Shown here: one piece after another, positions 1-4,270 of the stretch
Position numbering within the stretch: position 1 is the stretch's first letter
How the letters are laid out: each line of letters opens with the position of its first letter
Position numbers and translations under genes: made by a program
The notes under the pieces: generated by a model
What the model saw: only the letters and a program-made list of their open reading frames with translations
Database searches by the model: none
What the model was told of the DNA's origin: nothing
Virus record (IMG/VR): IMGVR_UViG_2711768074_000007
Span: 1-4,270 of that record
Source of the DNA: a virus
Taxonomy: Duplodnaviria > Heunggongvirae > Uroviricota > Caudoviricetes
Reading direction: 5' to 3' (one strand)
DNA: 4,270 nt

Positions 1-132
1 GTTGGTACGGGATGCTATCACGGCGATGCCCTGACGGTTTATCCCTACACCCCGGAGTCCATTATTGTCGAAGGGGATTATTTCCCTGCCCCAGCCATTC
101 ATTTAATTGATAATCTGAGAGTAAACGCATGA
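1..132 (+). CDS. 3' end of upstream late gene (partial; probably a baseplate protein by P2-like gene order). Frame 1 is open from the window edge to TGA at 130..132
   Basis: Frame 1 has no stop from position 1 until TGA at 130-132, which overlaps the tail fibre ATG (ATGA overlap at 129-132), typical of coupled phage late genes. No start codon in window. Product is inferred only from position upstream of the fibre gene. Confidence 0.4.
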   Translation, partial: VGTGCYHGDALTVYPYTPESIIVEGDYFPAPAIHLIDNLRVNA

Positions 133-1694
133 CAGTGAAATACTACGCCATTCTGACTAATCAGGGCGCGGCACGACTGGCTAACGCGACGATGCTCGGC
201 AGTAAGCTGAATCTGACGCAAATGGCCGTTGGTGATGCAAATGGTGTGTTACCAACACCAGACCCTGCACAAACAAAACTGATTAACCAGAAACGCATTG
301 CACCGCTGAATCTTCTGAGTGTTGACCCTAACAATCAGAGCCAGATTATTGCGGAGCAAATCATCCCTGAAAACGAGGGAGGATTCTGGATCCGTGAGAT
401 TGGTCTTTATGATGATGAAGGTGTACTCATTGCGGTGGCAAACTGCCCGGAAACGTACAAACCGCAGTTGCAGGAAGGCAGTGGACGCACCCAGACTATC
501 CGCATGATTCTGGTTGTCACGAACACCGAAGCCATCACGCTGAAAATCGACCCGTCTGTGGTTCTGGCAACCCGCAAATATGTGGATGATAAAATATCAG
601 AGCACGAACAGTCACGACGTCACCCGGACGCCTCGCTGACCGTAAAAGGTTTTACTCAGTTAAGCAGTGCAATTAACAGTGAATCAGAAACACTGGCCGC
701 AACACCGAAAGCGGTTAAGGCTGCATATGACCTGGCTAACGAGAAATATACCGCCCAGAACGCCACCACTACACAAAAAGGGATTGTTCAGCTCAGTAGC
801 GCCACGAACAGCACGTCTGAAACACTGGCAGCGACACCAAAAGCTGTTAAGGCGGTAATGGATGAAACGAACAAGAAAGCACCATTAAACAGCCCGGCAC
901 TGACCGGAACGCCAACAACACCAACAGCGCCACAGGGGACTAATAGTACCCAGATCGCAAGCACGGCTTTCGTTATGGCCGCGATTGCCGCACTTGTAGA
1001 TTCGTCACCTGATGCACTGAACACGCTGAACGAACTGGCTGCGGCGCTGGGCAATGACCCGAATTTTGCGACCACCATGACTAACGCGCTTGCGGGTAAG
1101 CAACCGAAGGATGCCACCCTGACGGCGCTGGCGGAGCTTGCTACATCAGCAGATAAACTCCCATATTTTACAGGGGCAGATCGTGCCGCGTTAACCGCGT
1201 TGACAAGTGTTGGACGTGCCATTCTTGGTAAAACCAGCACTCAGGGAGTTCTTGATTACCTTGGTTTGGGAGAAGGCTCTGCATTACCGGTTGGGGTGCC
1301 TGTTCCGTGGCCTTCAGCCACTCCGCCAACGGGCTGGCTGAAATGTAACGGTGCAGCATTTTCTTCTGAAATGTATCCCAGACTGGCAAGGGCTTATCCC
1401 ACCAATAAATTACCGGATTTACGCGGTGAATTTATCCGTGGCTGGGATGATGGGCGCGGGATTGATGCGGGACGTACCCTGCTTTCAGGGCAGGATGGTA
1501 CAAGTTTTTCTCATTACGGAGGTAATTTCGACATTGGGTCTGGTCATTCAATCAATAACTATGACCAAATTGTTTCTAACCAACCAGGCTTTTCCCGTTT
1601 TTCATTTGCAGGGCCTTCACGAGGCGGTGGGGTTAATTATGTAACCATTCGTCCTCGTAATATTGCGTTTAATTACATCGTAAGGGCAGCATGA
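129..1694 (+). CDS. Tail fibre protein, P2 gpH-like. Constant shaft is codons 1-378 (129..1262); the C-terminal ~143 codons (1263..1691) are variable tip cassette V1, currently expressed
   Basis: 521-aa ORF. N-terminal region (MTVKYYAILTNQGAARLANAT...MAVGDANG...GFWIREIGLYDDEGVLIAVAN) and repeated QLSSA(I/T)NS(E/T)SETLAATPKAVKA motifs match what I recall of P2 H / Mu S type tail fibres. C-terminus contains the LPDLRGEFIRGWDDGRG motif shared by all cassettes in the window. Confidence 0.92.
   Translation: MTVKYYAILTNQGAARLANATMLGSKLNLTQMAVGDANGVLPTPDPAQTKLINQKRIAPLNLLSVDPNNQSQIIAEQIIPENEGGFWIREIGLYDDEGVLIAVANCPETYKPQLQEGSGRTQTIRMILVVTNTEAITLKIDPSVVLATRKYVDDKISEHEQSRRHPDASLTVKGFTQLSSAINSESETLAATPKAVKAAYDLANEKYTAQNATTTQKGIVQLSSATNSTSETLAATPKAVKAVMDETNKKAPLNSPALTGTPTTPTAPQGTNSTQIASTAFVMAAIAALVDSSPDALNTLNELAAALGNDPNFATTMTNALAGKQPKDATLTALAELATSADKLPYFTGADRAALTALTSVGRAILGKTSTQGVLDYLGLGEGSALPVGVPVPWPSATPPTGWLKCNGAAFSSEMYPRLARAYPTNKLPDLRGEFIRGWDDGRGIDAGRTLLSGQDGTSFSHYGGNFDIGSGHSINNYDQIVSNQPGFSRFSFAGPSRGGGVNYVTIRPRNIAFNYIVRAA
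1249..1274 (+). other. Crossover site 1 (Gin/Hin/Cin-type 26-bp site, direct orientation, core TT at 1261-1262) at the constant/variable junction of the tail fibre gene
   Basis: ttcttgattacc-tt-ggtttgggagaa: 12-bp half-sites around a 2-bp core. Inner half ggtttgggagaa is identical to the inner half of site 5 in inverted orientation. Identity with the other repeat copies begins exactly at the core. Falls in the Y-L-G-L-G-E codons. Confidence 0.65.
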
Positions 1695-1722
1695 AAACGT
1701 TGGTTTGGGGGAAGGCTCTGCG
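1261..1722. repeat. Left copy of a ~462-bp inverted repeat (core of site 1 through V1 and site 2)
   Basis: By eye, identical to the reverse complement of 3719..4180; the embedded ORFs 1351..1644(+) and 3796..4089(-) translate to the same 97 aa, and V1 equals V5 at protein level. Confidence 0.8.
1688..1713 (+). other. Crossover site 2 (direct orientation, core TT at 1700-1701); overlaps the V1 stop codon and the start of cassette V2
   Basis: agcatgaaaacg-tt-ggtttgggggaa. Left half carries the TGA stop of the tail fibre gene (gca gca tga); right half encodes G-L-G-E of cassette V2. Confidence 0.65.
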
Positions 1723-2163
1723 TTGCCCGTTGGTGTGCCCGTTCCATGGCCCTCAGCCACGCCGCCAACGGGGTGGCTGAAATGTAACGGCGCAGCATTT
1801 TCTTCTGAAATGTACCCCAATCTGGCAAAGGCCTACCCCACCAATAAATTACCGGATTTACGCGGTGAATTTATCCGTGGCTGGGATGATGGGCGCGGGG
1901 TGGATGCCGGAAGGGGCATCTTAAGCATGCAGGGGTGGTTAACAGGAAGTCATTATCATAATATTCGGTCATGGGATGCGTGGGATAACACGGTGCTGGT
2001 GCCAAATGACAAAGGAGGGGATAGTCTGTTGTCGACAGATAACGCCGTCCGGCAAGGTGCAATTAACGGTAGATTTACCAGTCAATACAGAACTGAATCC
2101 TCAGAGGGGAATGAAACCCGCCCACGCAATATTGCCTTCAATTATATTGTGAGAACCGCATAA
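1705..2163 (+). CDS. Silent alternative tail-fibre tip cassette V2 (no ATG and no ribosome-binding site of its own; would be expressed only after DNA rearrangement fuses it to the constant part)
   Basis: Open frame begins just after an in-frame TAA at 1681-1683; the ORF track starts it at TTG 1705. N-terminal 65 aa are nearly identical to V1 (GEGSALPVGVPVPWPSATPPTGWLKCNGAAFSSEMYP...DLRGEFIRGWDDGRG); C-terminus is ETRPRNIAFNYIVRTA; the middle is divergent. Confidence 0.8.
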   Translation: MGEGSALPVGVPVPWPSATPPTGWLKCNGAAFSSEMYPNLAKAYPTNKLPDLRGEFIRGWDDGRGVDAGRGILSMQGWLTGSHYHNIRSWDAWDNTVLVPNDKGGDSLLSTDNAVRQGAINGRFTSQYRTESSEGNETRPRNIAFNYIVRTA

Positions 2164-2774
2164 TGAATAACGCGATATTAAATGATGACCTTATTGCCGT
2201 ACAGGCAGGAAACATCGTCGTTTATAACTATGATGGTGAGACACGGGAATATATTTCCGAATCAACTGAATATCTTGCTGTGGGTGTCGGTATTCCGGTA
2301 AATTCCTGTTTAGATGCCCCGGGCGCACATAAAGCGGGCTATGCTATCCGCCGTTCGGAGAATTTAAGTTCATGGGAGTATGCGCCAGACCATCGTGGTG
2401 AAACCGTCTATAGCACTGACACGGGAAACACCGAAGAAATCACGGCGCTGGGTGACTACCCGAAAAATACAACCACTATCGCCCCGTTAACACCATACGA
2501 TAAATGGGATGGTGAAAAATGGGTGACAGATACTGAGGCACAACATCGTGCCGCAGTAGAAGCGGCAGAAACCAAGCGTCAGTCACTGGCTGATGCGGCA
2601 ATGGCTTCCATAAGTCTGATTCAGTTGAAGTTGCAGGCCGGGCGGAAGTTGACGCAGGCAGAAACCACCCGGCTTAATGCCGTGCTGGATTATATAGACG
2701 CGCTGAACGCAATGGATATAAACATGGCACCAGATATCAACTTGCCGGAAATACCACTGGCAGCAGCCAGTTGA
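2163..2774 (+). CDS. Tail fibre assembly chaperone (Tfa / P2 gpG / Mu U-like), cognate to cassette V2
   Basis: 203-aa ORF whose ATG overlaps the V2 stop (TAATG at 2161-2165). Position immediately downstream of a fibre tip, and its size, fit tail-fibre assembly proteins; family assignment is from memory, not a search. Confidence 0.7.
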   Translation: MNNAILNDDLIAVQAGNIVVYNYDGETREYISESTEYLAVGVGIPVNSCLDAPGAHKAGYAIRRSENLSSWEYAPDHRGETVYSTDTGNTEEITALGDYPKNTTTIAPLTPYDKWDGEKWVTDTEAQHRAAVEAAETKRQSLADAAMASISLIQLKLQAGRKLTQAETTRLNAVLDYIDALNAMDINMAPDINLPEIPLAAAS

Positions 2775-2780
2775 ATATAA

Positions 2781-3257
2781 CTAAGCCGCCCTTACGATAT
2801 AGTTAAATGCAATATTGCGGGGGCGGGTTTCACTACCACCTGTGTTACCAATACTTCCTCGTGAATGAAGCGTTGGTGATGGAATCAAACTCCCTCCTGT
2901 ATTTGTGGCATCAAGCCCCCTGCCTTGCGTATATGTTTTTTTGAAAATCGTGGCCAACTCCCATTCATCCTTTGTGTCATATCCATCGTTAGCTACAACA
3001 ATATGGCGGTGTTTTTCCAACATCCCGTTTTGAATGCTCAATAAAGCGCGTGCCGCATCAATTCCTCGCCCATCATCCCAGCCACGGATAAATTCACCGC
3101 GTAAATCCGGTAATTTATTGGTGGGGTAGGCCTTTGCCAGATTGGGGTACATTTCAGAAGAAAATGCTGCACCGTTACATTTCAGCCACCCCGTTGGCGG
3201 CGTGGCTGAGGGCCATGGAACGGGCACACCAACGGGCAGCGCAGAGCCTTCCCCCAA
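2781..3257 (-). CDS. Silent alternative tail-fibre tip cassette V3 (inverted orientation)
   Basis: Minus-strand ORF with the same conserved N-module (GEGSALPVGVPVPWPSATPPTGWLKCNGAAFSSEMYPNLAKAYPTNKLPDLRGEFIRGWDDGRG) and C-terminus (ETRPRNIAFNYIVRAA), with a unique middle. Begins at crossover site 3; no ATG. Confidence 0.8.
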   Translation of the reverse strand: MGEGSALPVGVPVPWPSATPPTGWLKCNGAAFSSEMYPNLAKAYPTNKLPDLRGEFIRGWDDGRGIDAARALLSIQNGMLEKHRHIVVANDGYDTKDEWELATIFKKTYTQGRGLDATNTGGSLIPSPTLHSRGSIGNTGGSETRPRNIAFNYIVRAA

Positions 3258-3273
3258 ACCAACGTTTTCATGC
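3248..3273 (-). other. Crossover site 3 (inverted orientation, core AA on the plus strand at 3260-3261)
   Basis: ttcccccaaacc-aa-cgttttcatgct; its reverse complement is identical to site 2. Overlaps the start of V3 and the stop of V4. Confidence 0.65.
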
Positions 3274-3735
3274 TGCCCTTACGATGTAATTAAACGCAAT
3301 GTTATGGGGGCGTGTTTCAGATGCTGTGCGAACTGAGCGAGAGGCGTCGAATGCCCATACAGAAGCACCATATCCTTCAATGATCTCAGTTGGTTGTAAG
3401 CCTACTGATAATATAGAGTCAGTTTGACTAAATGGTCCTGAATTAAGCGCATCTTCAAAAAGCTGAGTACGCCCAAAAGTGCCAACTATATTCTGAATAG
3501 CGTCAGACTGTGCAGACAGTAGGTTGCGCCCATTATCAACGCCCCGTCCGTCATCCCAGCCGCGAATAAATTCGCCCCGTAAATCCGGTAATTTATTGGT
3601 GGGGTAGGCCTTTGCCAGATTGGGGTACATTTCAGAAGAAAATGCTGCGCCGTTACATTTCAGCCACCCCGTTGGCAGCGTGGCTGAGGGCCATGGAACG
3701 GGCACACCAACGGGCAGCGCAGAGCCTTCCCCCAA
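3268..3735 (-). CDS. Silent alternative tail-fibre tip cassette V4 (inverted orientation)
   Basis: Minus-strand ORF with conserved N-module (one substitution, SATLPTGW) and conserved C-terminus (ETRPHNIAFNYIVRAA), with a unique middle that looks AT-richer by eye. Begins at crossover site 4. Confidence 0.8.
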   Translation of the reverse strand: MGEGSALPVGVPVPWPSATLPTGWLKCNGAAFSSEMYPNLAKAYPTNKLPDLRGEFIRGWDDGRGVDNGRNLLSAQSDAIQNIVGTFGRTQLFEDALNSGPFSQTDSILSVGLQPTEIIEGYGASVWAFDASRSVRTASETRPHNIAFNYIVRAA

Positions 3736-3752
3736 ACCAACGTTTTCATGCT
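3727..3752 (-). other. Crossover site 4 (inverted orientation, core AA at 3739-3740)
   Basis: ttcccccaaacc-aa-cgttttcatgct, identical to site 3. Overlaps the start of V4 and the stop of V5. Confidence 0.65.
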
Positions 3753-4174
3753 GCCCTTACGATGTAATTAAACGCAATATTACGAGGACGAATGGTTACA
3801 TAATTAACCCCACCGCCTCGTGAAGGCCCTGCAAATGAAAAACGGGAAAAGCCTGGTTGGTTAGAAACAATTTGGTCATAGTTATTGATTGAATGACCAG
3901 ACCCAATGTCGAAATTACCTCCGTAATGAGAAAAACTTGTACCATCCTGCCCTGAAAGCAGGGTACGTCCCGCATCAATCCCGCGCCCATCATCCCAGCC
4001 ACGGATAAATTCACCGCGTAAATCCGGTAATTTATTGGTGGGATAAGCCCTTGCCAGTCTGGGATACATTTCAGAAGAAAATGCTGCACCGTTACATTTC
4101 AGCCAGCCCGTTGGCGGAGTGGCTGAAGGCCACGGAACAGGCACCCCAACCGGTAATGCAGAGCCTTCTCCCAA
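3746..4174 (-). CDS. Silent tip cassette V5 (inverted orientation); protein identical to the currently expressed V1
   Basis: Translation from the TTG at 4174..4172 gives GEGSALPVGVPVPWPSATPPTGW...GGGVNYVTIRPRNIAFNYIVRAA, identical to residues 382-521 of the 129..1694 product. The ORF track extends the frame upstream to an ATG at 4231, which I treat as a fortuitous extension through site 5. Confidence 0.8.
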   Translation of the reverse strand: MGEGSALPVGVPVPWPSATPPTGWLKCNGAAFSSEMYPRLARAYPTNKLPDLRGEFIRGWDDGRGIDAGRTLLSGQDGTSFSHYGGNFDIGSGHSINNYDQIVSNQPGFSRFSFAGPSRGGGVNYVTIRPRNIAFNYIVRAA

Positions 4175-4191
4175 ACCAACGTTTTCGTCTT
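4166..4191 (-). other. Crossover site 5 (inverted orientation, core AA at 4178-4179); outermost site next to the invertase gene
   Basis: ttctcccaaacc-aa-cgttttcgtctt. Inner half ttctcccaaacc is the exact reverse complement of the inner half of site 1; the outer half differs from sites 3 and 4. Confidence 0.65.
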
Positions 4192-4230
4192 TATCCCTAC
4201 CTATACCAACTATGTATTTTTCACGAAACA

Positions 4231-4237
4231 AAGAGGA
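4231..4237 (+). promoter_or_regulatory. Shine-Dalgarno sequence (aagagga) for the invertase gene
   Basis: Purine-rich aagagga lies 8-9 nt upstream of the ATG at 4246. Confidence 0.5.
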
Positions 4238-4245
4238 TGTTTTTT

Positions 4246-4270
4246 ATGCAAATTGGCTATATTCGTGTGT
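4246..4270 (+). CDS. 5' end (8 codons) of a probable serine DNA invertase (Gin/Cin/Pin/Hin family); partial, runs off the window
   Basis: MQIGYIRV matches the characteristic N-terminus of serine invertases (M-x-IGY-x-RVS, with the catalytic Ser expected one or two codons past the window end). Good ribosome-binding site. Sits immediately beside an array of Gin-type crossover sites in tail fibre genes. Confidence 0.6.

Follow-up and report, generated by a model that had tools for sequence, protein, structure and literature searches.

Does the DNA that follows the constant part of the tail fibre gene in this phage sequence form a DNA-inversion switch and, if so, how many sites and tips does it hold? 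An initial annotation had proposed a serine-invertase, multi-site switch on a P2 H-like fibre. That reading is borne out by the homology of the sites to cix, by junction-identical loci carrying a Gin-like invertase, by natural isomers, and by published PCR and PacBio results on sister loci. We consider it highly probable that we are dealing with a multiple DNA-inversion switch of the Min/Pin type, located in the tail fibre operon of a P2-like prophage in E. coli. The window, i.e., the whole 4,270-bp stretch analysed, is the entire contig CYGG01000171.1 of the draft short-read assembly GCA_001284325.1.

Organisation of the tail fibre locus

The following genes and cassettes were delineated in the window:

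1..132, plus strand: 3' end of a baseplate gene like P2 gpI ('phage tail protein I'), in collinear position with gene I as annotated in L001, L002, and L003
129..1260, plus strand: constant 5' shaft of a P2 gpH-like tail fibre gene, assigned by Pfam and identity to P2 H
1263..1694, plus strand: tip T0 (143 aa), now fused to the shaft; Pfam Collar domain
1702..2163, plus strand: tip T1 (153 aa), silent; Collar domain; the sole tip directly followed by tfa
2163..2774, plus strand: tail fibre assembly (chaperone) gene tfa; Pfam Caudo_TAP, 1.9e-31; within the invertible segment s2-s3
2781..3260, minus strand: tip T2 (159 aa), silent; Collar domain
3268..3738, minus strand: tip T3 (156 aa), silent; Collar domain
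3746..4177, minus strand: second, inverted copy of T0, identical to 1263-1694
4247..4270, plus strand: first eight codons (MQIGYIRV) of a putative DNA invertase gene, the remainder lying off the contig

The fibre ORF (129-1694) matches the Pfam families Phage_tail_fib (2.7e-62) and, in its repeats, Phage_fiber_2 (2.2e-42), and the fibre gene is 88% identical to P2 H at the nucleotide level. The gene order in relatives is V-W-J-I-H, and the annotated gene I overlaps the start of the fibre gene in three of them (L001, L002, and L003). The gene has the make-up of a P2 gpH-type fibre, with a Phage_tail_fib N-terminus followed by Phage_fiber_2 repeats and a position downstream of gpJ and gpI.

The tips measure 143-159 aa. 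Their Collar domain (78 aa) and the C-terminal 14 aa are shared, and they diverge in a middle part of 50-75 aa related to the receptor-binding head of T4 gp12; the tip profile matches the tip structures of T4 gp12 and gp37. All cassettes in the window, as well as tfa, are intact ORFs.

A single tfa is present for the whole array. It occurs on either strand in natural isomers and, under the inversion model described below, half of the isomers would have it antisense to the fibre gene. By sequence, its product found no match among solved structures, and scans of the window for sigma-70 promoters and terminators returned nothing above the shuffle expectation. Read-through into the inverted tfa from the convergent tail operon (T, U, minus strand) was considered and dropped because of an intervening hairpin resembling a bidirectional terminator; in L001, a hairpin with a 12-bp stem and flanking A/T runs lies at 7396-7425, between the invertase gene and gpU.

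Crossover sites and reading frame

The motif TTGGTTTGGGRGAAGG occurs exactly five times in the window, at 1261 and 1700 on the plus strand and at 3262, 3740, and 4179 on the minus strand, against a chance expectation of 0.01; five copies were reached in none of 200 shuffles. All five of the 26-bp sites claimed by the initial annotation were found (written in the tip direction):

1249-1274, plus strand: crossover site s1, TTCTTGATTACC-TT-GGTTTGGGAGAA; left half is part of the constant gene
1688-1713, plus strand: crossover site s2, AGCATGAAAACG-TT-GGTTTGGGGGAA; left half is the 3' end of T0 with its stop codon
3249-3274, minus strand: crossover site s3, AGCATGAAAACG-TT-GGTTTGGGGGAA
3727-3752, minus strand: crossover site s4, AGCATGAAAACG-TT-GGTTTGGGGGAA
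4166-4191, minus strand: crossover site s5, AAGACGAAAACG-TT-GGTTTGGGAGAA; left half formed by the fixed flank next to the invertase

Each site pairs two 12-bp half-sites, imperfect inverted repeats of each other, that flank a non-palindromic core of 2 bp. The TT core and the tip-side half GGTTTGGG(A/G)GAA, whose counterpart in cix is GGTTTAAGAGAA, are common to all five. The description of the half-sites as Gin/Hin-like holds in part: a good fit to the TTnTCnnAAACC type is seen in the tip-side half-sites and in s1's left half, whereas the other left halves are weak matches. The left half of s1 recurs in all related arrays, and the flanking half-site of s5 was also found in L001, L008, L011, L012, and L101. 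On the plus strand, the first two cores read TT and the last three read AA, as originally described, so that s1 and s2 are inverted relative to s3, s4, and s5 on the same molecule. The array has more than two crossover sites with overlapping invertible segments: five on the contig, and at least four if the duplicate discussed below is artefactual.

The sites can be aligned with cixL and cixR, the crossover sites annotated in P1, and have the same TT core; between s1 and cixR, 8 of 12 positions in the left half and 10 of 12 in the other half agree, in addition to the core. They also match the sites of EC958 Phi2, where inversion was demonstrated by PacBio sequencing, and the Sandmeier consensus tabulated with them (PMC4134206).

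Every site carries GGT-TTG-GGx-GAA-GGC-TCT, read as G-L-G-E-G-S in the tip frame, and the codons at s1 are in frame with the fibre ORF 129-1694. Since this register is shared by all five sites, every fusion of the constant part to a tip would be in frame. Two earlier claims, that the sites open the tip cassettes at L-G-L-G-E-G-S codons and that recombination yields in-frame fusions, thus agree with the register observed. One constant 5' part is fused in frame to alternative 3' parts, and in relatives the shaft is joined to T0, T1, or T3.

The probable adjacent DNA invertase

The flanking gene beginning MQIGYIRV, noted at the outset, was located with its ATG at 4247. The last 91 bp of the window (4180-4270) recur unchanged in L001, L019, and L101, and these loci continue into a gene for a 199-aa protein with Resolvase and HTH_7 domains. 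This protein of the relatives matches Pfam Resolvase (1.5e-51) as well as HTH_7, has a serine at position 9, and aligns end to end with the Mu Gin structures 3UJ3 and 4M6F (E about 1e-91). Invertases of the Gin/Hin/Cin/Pin group are proteins of about 190 aa with an N-terminal catalytic domain, in which the serine lies near position 9-10, and a C-terminal helix-turn-helix; the 5' part of their genes contains a Fis-dependent recombinational enhancer. Nucleotides 19-90 of the L001 invertase gene are identical to the annotated P1 cin enhancer at 57 of 72 positions (79%), compared with 67% for the gene overall. Judged from these sequence matches, a Gin-family serine invertase is most likely encoded immediately to the right of the array, with 24 nt of its gene inside the window.

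Predicted inversion and natural isomers

In the proposed mechanism, the invertase would pair either plus-strand site (s1 or s2) with any minus-strand site (s3-s5), cut both at the 2-bp TT core, rotate the strands, and religate them, leaving the intervening DNA inverted. The Fis-bound enhancer in the 5' end of the invertase gene would be expected to assist. Whichever cassette comes to adjoin the left half of s1 would be expressed in frame with the shaft, while the remaining cassettes would be silent; the common register (..-TT-GGT TTG GGx GAA, or G-L-G-E) implies that any cassette can fuse in this way. Because the tips differ in their gp12-head-related middle part, the switch most likely alters host range.

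According to an inversion model, the contig as written could adopt 48 site-labelled arrangements, equal to 24 distinct sequences, with four different fibres among them. For arrays of three, four, and six sites, the model yields 4, 12, and 240 isomers, respectively. The value for three sites agrees with the measured number, and the four different arrangements found in four strains with tips T0-T3 are all among the 12 predicted for four.

Goldberg et al. (2014) detected, by sequencing and PCR, four coexisting variants of a three-repeat locus in a P2-like prophage of EPEC E2348/69 (PMC4272514). The inversion sizes given there fit the E2348/69 sister locus compared here, and the two are very probably the same locus. 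In silico inversion between its outer cores turns one E2348/69 assembly into another with 0 mismatches over 9269 bp; the crossover position in natural isomers is resolved to about 37 bp only.

Origin of the duplicated tip cassette

Nucleotides 1261-1722 are the reverse complement of 3718-4179, with 462 of 462 positions identical. Tip 5 is thus a perfect inverted duplicate of tip 1, and the five different tips originally counted are reduced to four. Given this perfect copy, and a window that comprises one entire short-read contig, either an assembly chimera of a four-site array or a recent, genuine duplication may explain the fifth site and cassette.

It is quite plausible, if somewhat short of probable, that the true locus is a four-site, four-tip array and that the fifth site and the second T0 were created during assembly. 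In the graph of a mixed-isomer culture, the assembler would have passed a single T0 node twice in opposite directions, joining, for example, c-T0-T1.. to c-T1-tfa> <T2 <T3 <T0-invertase. The extent of the window, which spans one complete contig of a draft assembly, is compatible with this, and the 462-bp identity begins exactly at the crossover core and stops at the first T1/T3 polymorphism. Moreover, positions 1701-4270 are an exact legal isomer of a four-site array, and positions 1-1722 fit another. Four complete genomes (L001, L008, L013, and L014) have the same four tips and four sites, and the exact T3 protein directly adjoins the invertase in two other assemblies. Forde et al. caution against artefactual duplications in such regions (PMC4134206). 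However, a mixed culture should also produce branching at the constant side, where assemblers normally break; contigs of 859 and 1390 bp show such breaks, while the window contig runs cleanly through all sites. Furthermore, the array is laid out alike in the complete genome of APEC37 (L012), where T3 sits on the shaft and an inverted T3 beside the invertase, and its two T3 copies differ by a 2-nt homopolymer indel and were therefore assembled independently.

Tentatively, one could hypothesise that inverted duplicates of the expressed tip genuinely exist and arise repeatedly, as c-T0...T0-invertase in the window and c-T3...T3-invertase in APEC37, and that they are the footprint of unequal sister exchange. 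Exchange between a chromosome and a sister carrying the fully inverted isomer would leave one copy with an additional cassette and the other with one fewer. If so, arrays would expand and contract, between 3 and 9 sites, through unequal exchange; such a process is not known to have been described for invertase arrays.

Activity of the switch and the role of homologous recombination

Whether four or five sites are genuine, the array could be a fossil in which sites and cassettes persist in a defective prophage with a dead switch. The visible part of the invertase gene is limited to 24 nt, and some relatives (L007 and L012) have frameshifted cassettes. We regard this as improbable, since the cassettes and tfa of the window are all intact ORFs, its junction is the same, base for base, as in loci whose invertase is intact, inversion of sister loci occurs in culture, and invertases of other prophages can act in trans (PMC4134206). 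The multiple-inversion switch is presumably active in the source strain.

Rearrangement by RecA across the 200-460-bp inverted cassette heads, with the 26-bp motifs being conserved coding sequence, is very improbable: inverted repeats of 83-98% identity are indeed present and isomer junctions can be mapped no finer than the interval given above, but cassette homology to both fixed flanks ends exactly at the 26-bp sites, these agree, down to the core dinucleotide, with cix crossover sites mapped by experiment, every such array examined is adjoined by a Gin-like invertase whose enhancer region is conserved, and SCU-101 has a fusion at a quasi-site whose core is TT and which lacks flanking homology. 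RecA-mediated exchange in the 200-bp conserved cassette heads may nevertheless contribute.

Distribution and comparison with known systems

The cassette head is present in 247 of 5,426 complete E. coli genomes. In a cross-species survey of site number with the invertase as bait, most matches lay at contig ends and the motif filter was tuned too narrowly to this cassette family. Complete E. coli genomes contain five- and six-site arrays in the same prophage family, and the IncY P1-like plasmid p886Rt (L016) carries a nine-site array with the identical constant-side half-site TTCTTGATTACC and tips 92-98% identical to T0, T1, and T3 at the amino acid level. The cassette pool is thus common to P2-like prophages and P1-like phage-plasmids, which shows receptor-binding tips moving between unrelated phage backbones as site-flanked modules. 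With five-, six-, and nine-site versions in public complete genomes and a three-site version shown in EPEC E2348/69 in 2014, the suggestion that the locus might be new does not stand. It is an ordinary member of the invertase-switch family described since 1990, one more example of well-understood host-range bet-hedging with little import beyond annotation. For annotation, the silent cassettes all belong, as fragments, to a single variable gene, so that separate entries as 'phage tail proteins' are unwarranted, and short-read contigs across such regions can hold artefactual duplications.

The Min multiple-inversion system of the P1-related plasmid p15B, studied by Sandmeier, Iida, and Arber in 1990-92, reportedly has six sites and 240 isomers, a figure equal to that of our model for six sites. 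Min and its relatives on P1-like plasmids have the same design as the window, with a constant 5' fibre gene, many short alternative 3' cassettes that each begin with a 26-bp site, a single tfa within the invertible DNA, and a Gin-family invertase next to the array; the likeness to p15B is one of design, while the site comparison is with p886Rt. Min, however, switches a P1 S-type fibre on a plasmid, while the backbone of the window is that of a P2-like prophage in the chromosome, where the shaft is of the gpH type and the sites are fewer (4 or 5).

The G segment of Mu (Gin), the C segment of P1 (Cin), the P segment of e14 (Pin), and Phi1, Phi2, and Phi4 of EC958 have the same recombinase family, 26-bp sites with a 2-bp core, and purpose, but they have two sites, and each tip has its own chaperone gene, whereas several chaperone-less tips of 143-159 aa share one tfa in the window. 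The R64 shufflon (Rci, pilV) likewise combines many sites and a constant gene with alternative C-termini, but the analogy is functional only: Rci is a tyrosine recombinase acting on 19-bp sfx sites of a pilus adhesin gene, while the recombinase of the window's relatives is a serine resolvase/invertase and the sites resemble cix and measure 26 bp. The shufflon label (Rci/sfx) was rejected because the recombinase class is wrong. A close counterpart is the 'shufflon-like' EPEC E2348/69 switch, which belongs to the same prophage family, is about 97% identical at the nucleotide level, and has the same sites, tips T0, T1, and T2, and invertase type; it has three sites and lacks T3, while the window contains T3 and the duplicated T0.

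Organisation of the tail fibre array

The window comprises the entire 4270-bp contig CYGG01000171.1 of the draft E. coli assembly GCA_001284325.1, and matches P2-like prophages of many complete E. coli genomes at about 97% identity. Its features, with the tip cassettes designated T0 to T3, are as follows:

Window start: 3' end of a gene resembling P2 gpI, of which the final 132 bp are present
129-1694, +: fibre ORF, 521 aa, in the s1 frame, carrying Pfam Phage_tail_fib, Phage_fiber_2 repeats and Collar domains; T0 is its tip
1702-2163, +: orphan Collar-domain ORF (Pfam), T1
2163-2774, +: tail fibre assembly (chaperone) gene, tfa (Caudo_TAP)
2781-3260, -: orphan Collar-domain ORF (Pfam), T2
3268-3738, -: orphan Collar-domain ORF (Pfam), T3
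3746-4177, -: orphan Collar-domain ORF (Pfam), second copy of T0
4247: gene start reading MQIGYIRV

The motif TTGGTTTGGGRGAAGG occurs five times in the window (s1 and s2 on the plus strand, s3, s4 and s5 on the minus strand), against a chance expectation of 0.01. Written at 26 bp, in the direction of the tip that each one opens, the sites read TTCTTGATTACC-TT-GGTTTGGGAGAA for s1 (1249-1274), AGCATGAAAACG-TT-GGTTTGGGGGAA for s2, s3 and s4, and AAGACGAAAACG-TT-GGTTTGGGAGAA for s5. The annotated P1 crossover sites cixL and cixR align with them, the TT core included. At every site the right half opens the codons G-L-G-E-G-S, and those of s1 are in frame with the fibre ORF; therefore, any exchange at the core produces an in-frame fusion. 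The motif scan and the 26-bp alignment thus bear out the initial annotation in its coordinates, strands and core for all sites, and its statements on the reading frame are likewise correct.

The array encodes four different tips

Once reverse-complemented, the segment 1261-1722 agrees with 3718-4179 at all 462 positions; the identity starts at the TT of the s1 and s5 cores and stops at the first base separating the heads of the second and fourth tips. The fifth tip is therefore the first one repeated, which leaves the array with four different fibres rather than the five tip cassettes originally proposed. The accompanying prediction that each inversion would fuse the shaft in frame to a different tip holds for the frame, but not always for the difference.

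The tips have in common 78 N-terminal residues (the Collar domain) and 14 C-terminal residues, and diverge in the central 50-75 residues. Their profile matches the tip structures of T4 gp12 and gp37, a similarity which supports a putative receptor-binding role. An HxH motif lies at the start of the variable part of T1 (SHYH, window ~1940-1950) and T2 (KHRH, ~3020-3030, minus strand) and in several tips of relatives (DHAH, AHRH), and is absent from T0 and T3; it recalls the metal-binding HxH of T4 gp12 and gp37.

It is quite possible, if somewhat short of probable, that the duplicate T0 and with it the fifth site are an assembly artefact, a chimera of inversion isomers of a four-site array. The assembly is a short-read one, and the duplicate shows no mismatch. 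The sequence is also consistent with two legal four-site isomers joined within T0. Four complete genomes hold precisely this set of four tips with four sites, and in two other assemblies the identical T3 protein directly adjoins the invertase. Forde et al. (2014, PMC4134206) caution that duplications in regions of this type can be artefacts. However, an assembler faced with a mixed culture should stop at the sites, which is what happened in the 859- and 1390-bp contigs, and the complete genome of APEC37 (locus L012, NZ_CP127303.1) shows this geometry for a different tip, c-T3 ... <T3-invertase, where c is the constant 5' shaft side of the fibre gene. Its T3 copies, at 2023-2500 (fused to the shaft) and 4501-4978 (inverted, next to the invertase), differ solely by a 2-nt deletion within a run of C, a homopolymer indel, and so were assembled separately. 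The APEC37 duplicate suggests either that cassettes are duplicated repeatedly through unequal exchange between isomers or that assembly errors of this kind recur. Artefact or not, the number of different tips is four.

A probable serine invertase gene adjoins the array

As initially annotated, a gene starting MQIGYIRV flanks the array: it begins at 4247, and the junction 4180-4270 is identical to three invertase loci. In complete genomes the arrays of relatives are followed by a 199-aa "recombinase family protein" with Resolvase and HTH_7 domains and a serine at position 9, which aligns over its full length with crystal structures of Mu Gin (E ~1e-91). The annotated cin enhancer shares 79% identity with nucleotides 19-90 of a relative's invertase gene, versus 67% for the whole gene. 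The array is no shufflon in the strict sense, since the recombinase of these relatives belongs to the serine and not to the tyrosine class.

Inversion in related prophages

For the EPEC E2348/69 lineage, two assemblies disagree at this locus, and an in-silico inversion between the outer cores converts one into the other with 0 mismatches over 9269 bp. Sequencing and PCR of a P2-like E2348/69 prophage revealed three inverted repeats, a pair of overlapping inversions of ~2200 and 1800 bp, and four variants existing side by side (Goldberg et al. 2014, PMC4272514). The core-to-core distances of 2001 and 1562 bp, plus the repeat arms, fit these sizes, and the published locus is therefore very probably this one. 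The same kind of inversion was seen by PacBio in EC958 prophages, where the tips have Collar domains and one site pair reads ..ATTACC TT GGTTTAGGAGAA (Forde et al. 2014, PMC4134206).

The same four tips occur in four strains in four different orders (> and < give strand direction):

L001: c-T0-T3-T1-tfa> <T2
L008: c-T3-T1-tfa> <T2 <T0
L013: c-T0-T3-T2> <tfa <T1
L014: c-T3-T2> <tfa <T1 <T0

A simple model in which any pair of oppositely oriented sites may invert gives 4, 12, 48 and 240 arrangements for 3, 4, 5 and 6 sites, and all four observed orders fall within its 12. Counted as distinct sequences, up to 24 isomers are expected with five sites and 12 with four.

E. coli SCU-101 (locus L010, 2761-3617) carries a fibre gene with a hybrid tip, the first ~131 aa of T2 joined to a complete T1. 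The junction, CATCACCAACGC-TT-GGTTTGGGGGAA, falls within the body of T2, at a TT dinucleotide without flanking homology, and the homologous quasi-site in the window is at ~2860-2885 (minus strand). From its sequence, the hybrid looks like the product of invertase action at a secondary site.

A single tfa gene serves the array

T1 is the only tip directly followed by tfa. The one tfa gene of the array (2163-2774) lies between s2 and s3 and flips with its segment; half of the isomers predicted by the inversion model, as well as real genomes (L003, L013 and L014), have it antisense to the fibre gene. Read-through into tfa from the convergent tail operon is made less likely by a strong terminator-like hairpin that separates the invertase from gpU in L001 (7396-7425). 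The other tips may fold unaided by Tfa; if they do not, tfa must be expressed by another route. Downstream of the invertase in L001 (6807-9831), gpU-like and tape-measure genes are encoded on the other strand and point towards the fibre operon, an orientation that differs from the P2 gene order.

Distribution and comparison with known systems

The cassette head was found in 247 of 5,426 complete E. coli genomes (median 3, maximum 14 copies per genome), about half of the copies being chromosomal and half on plasmids. Genuine five-site arrays with five different tips are present in complete genomes of the same P2-like prophage family (Q5, N31 and JNE082640); HD12481, of this family too, has six sites, and 2014C-3075 has six annotated cassettes, five of them found by the motif scan. 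The homologous array of PC6 (locus L007, 2629-6300) is full of frameshifts and truncated ORFs, probably reflecting uncorrected long-read error rather than biological decay.

The P1-like IncY plasmid p886Rt (locus L016, NZ_CP080083.1, 3048-8003) has nine sites and nine tips, with the same constant-side half-site as the window, and its tips are 92-98% identical in amino acids to T0, T1 and T3; judged by these similarities, the link of the array to the P1/p15B world appears direct. This phage-plasmid and chromosomal P2-like prophages share near-identical cassettes.

The array is thus a real feature, correctly read in outline, possibly with four sites rather than five. The initial annotation singled out a five-site version as noteworthy, a view overtaken by the five- and six-site arrays of the same prophage family and the nine-site plasmid array. 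In its architecture, type of site, enzyme family and purpose the array matches the Gin, Cin and Pin systems and, in multi-site form, the Min system of p15B, said to have been described by Sandmeier and colleagues in 1990-91 with six sites and 240 isomers; the window holds a further member of this long-known and widespread kind.
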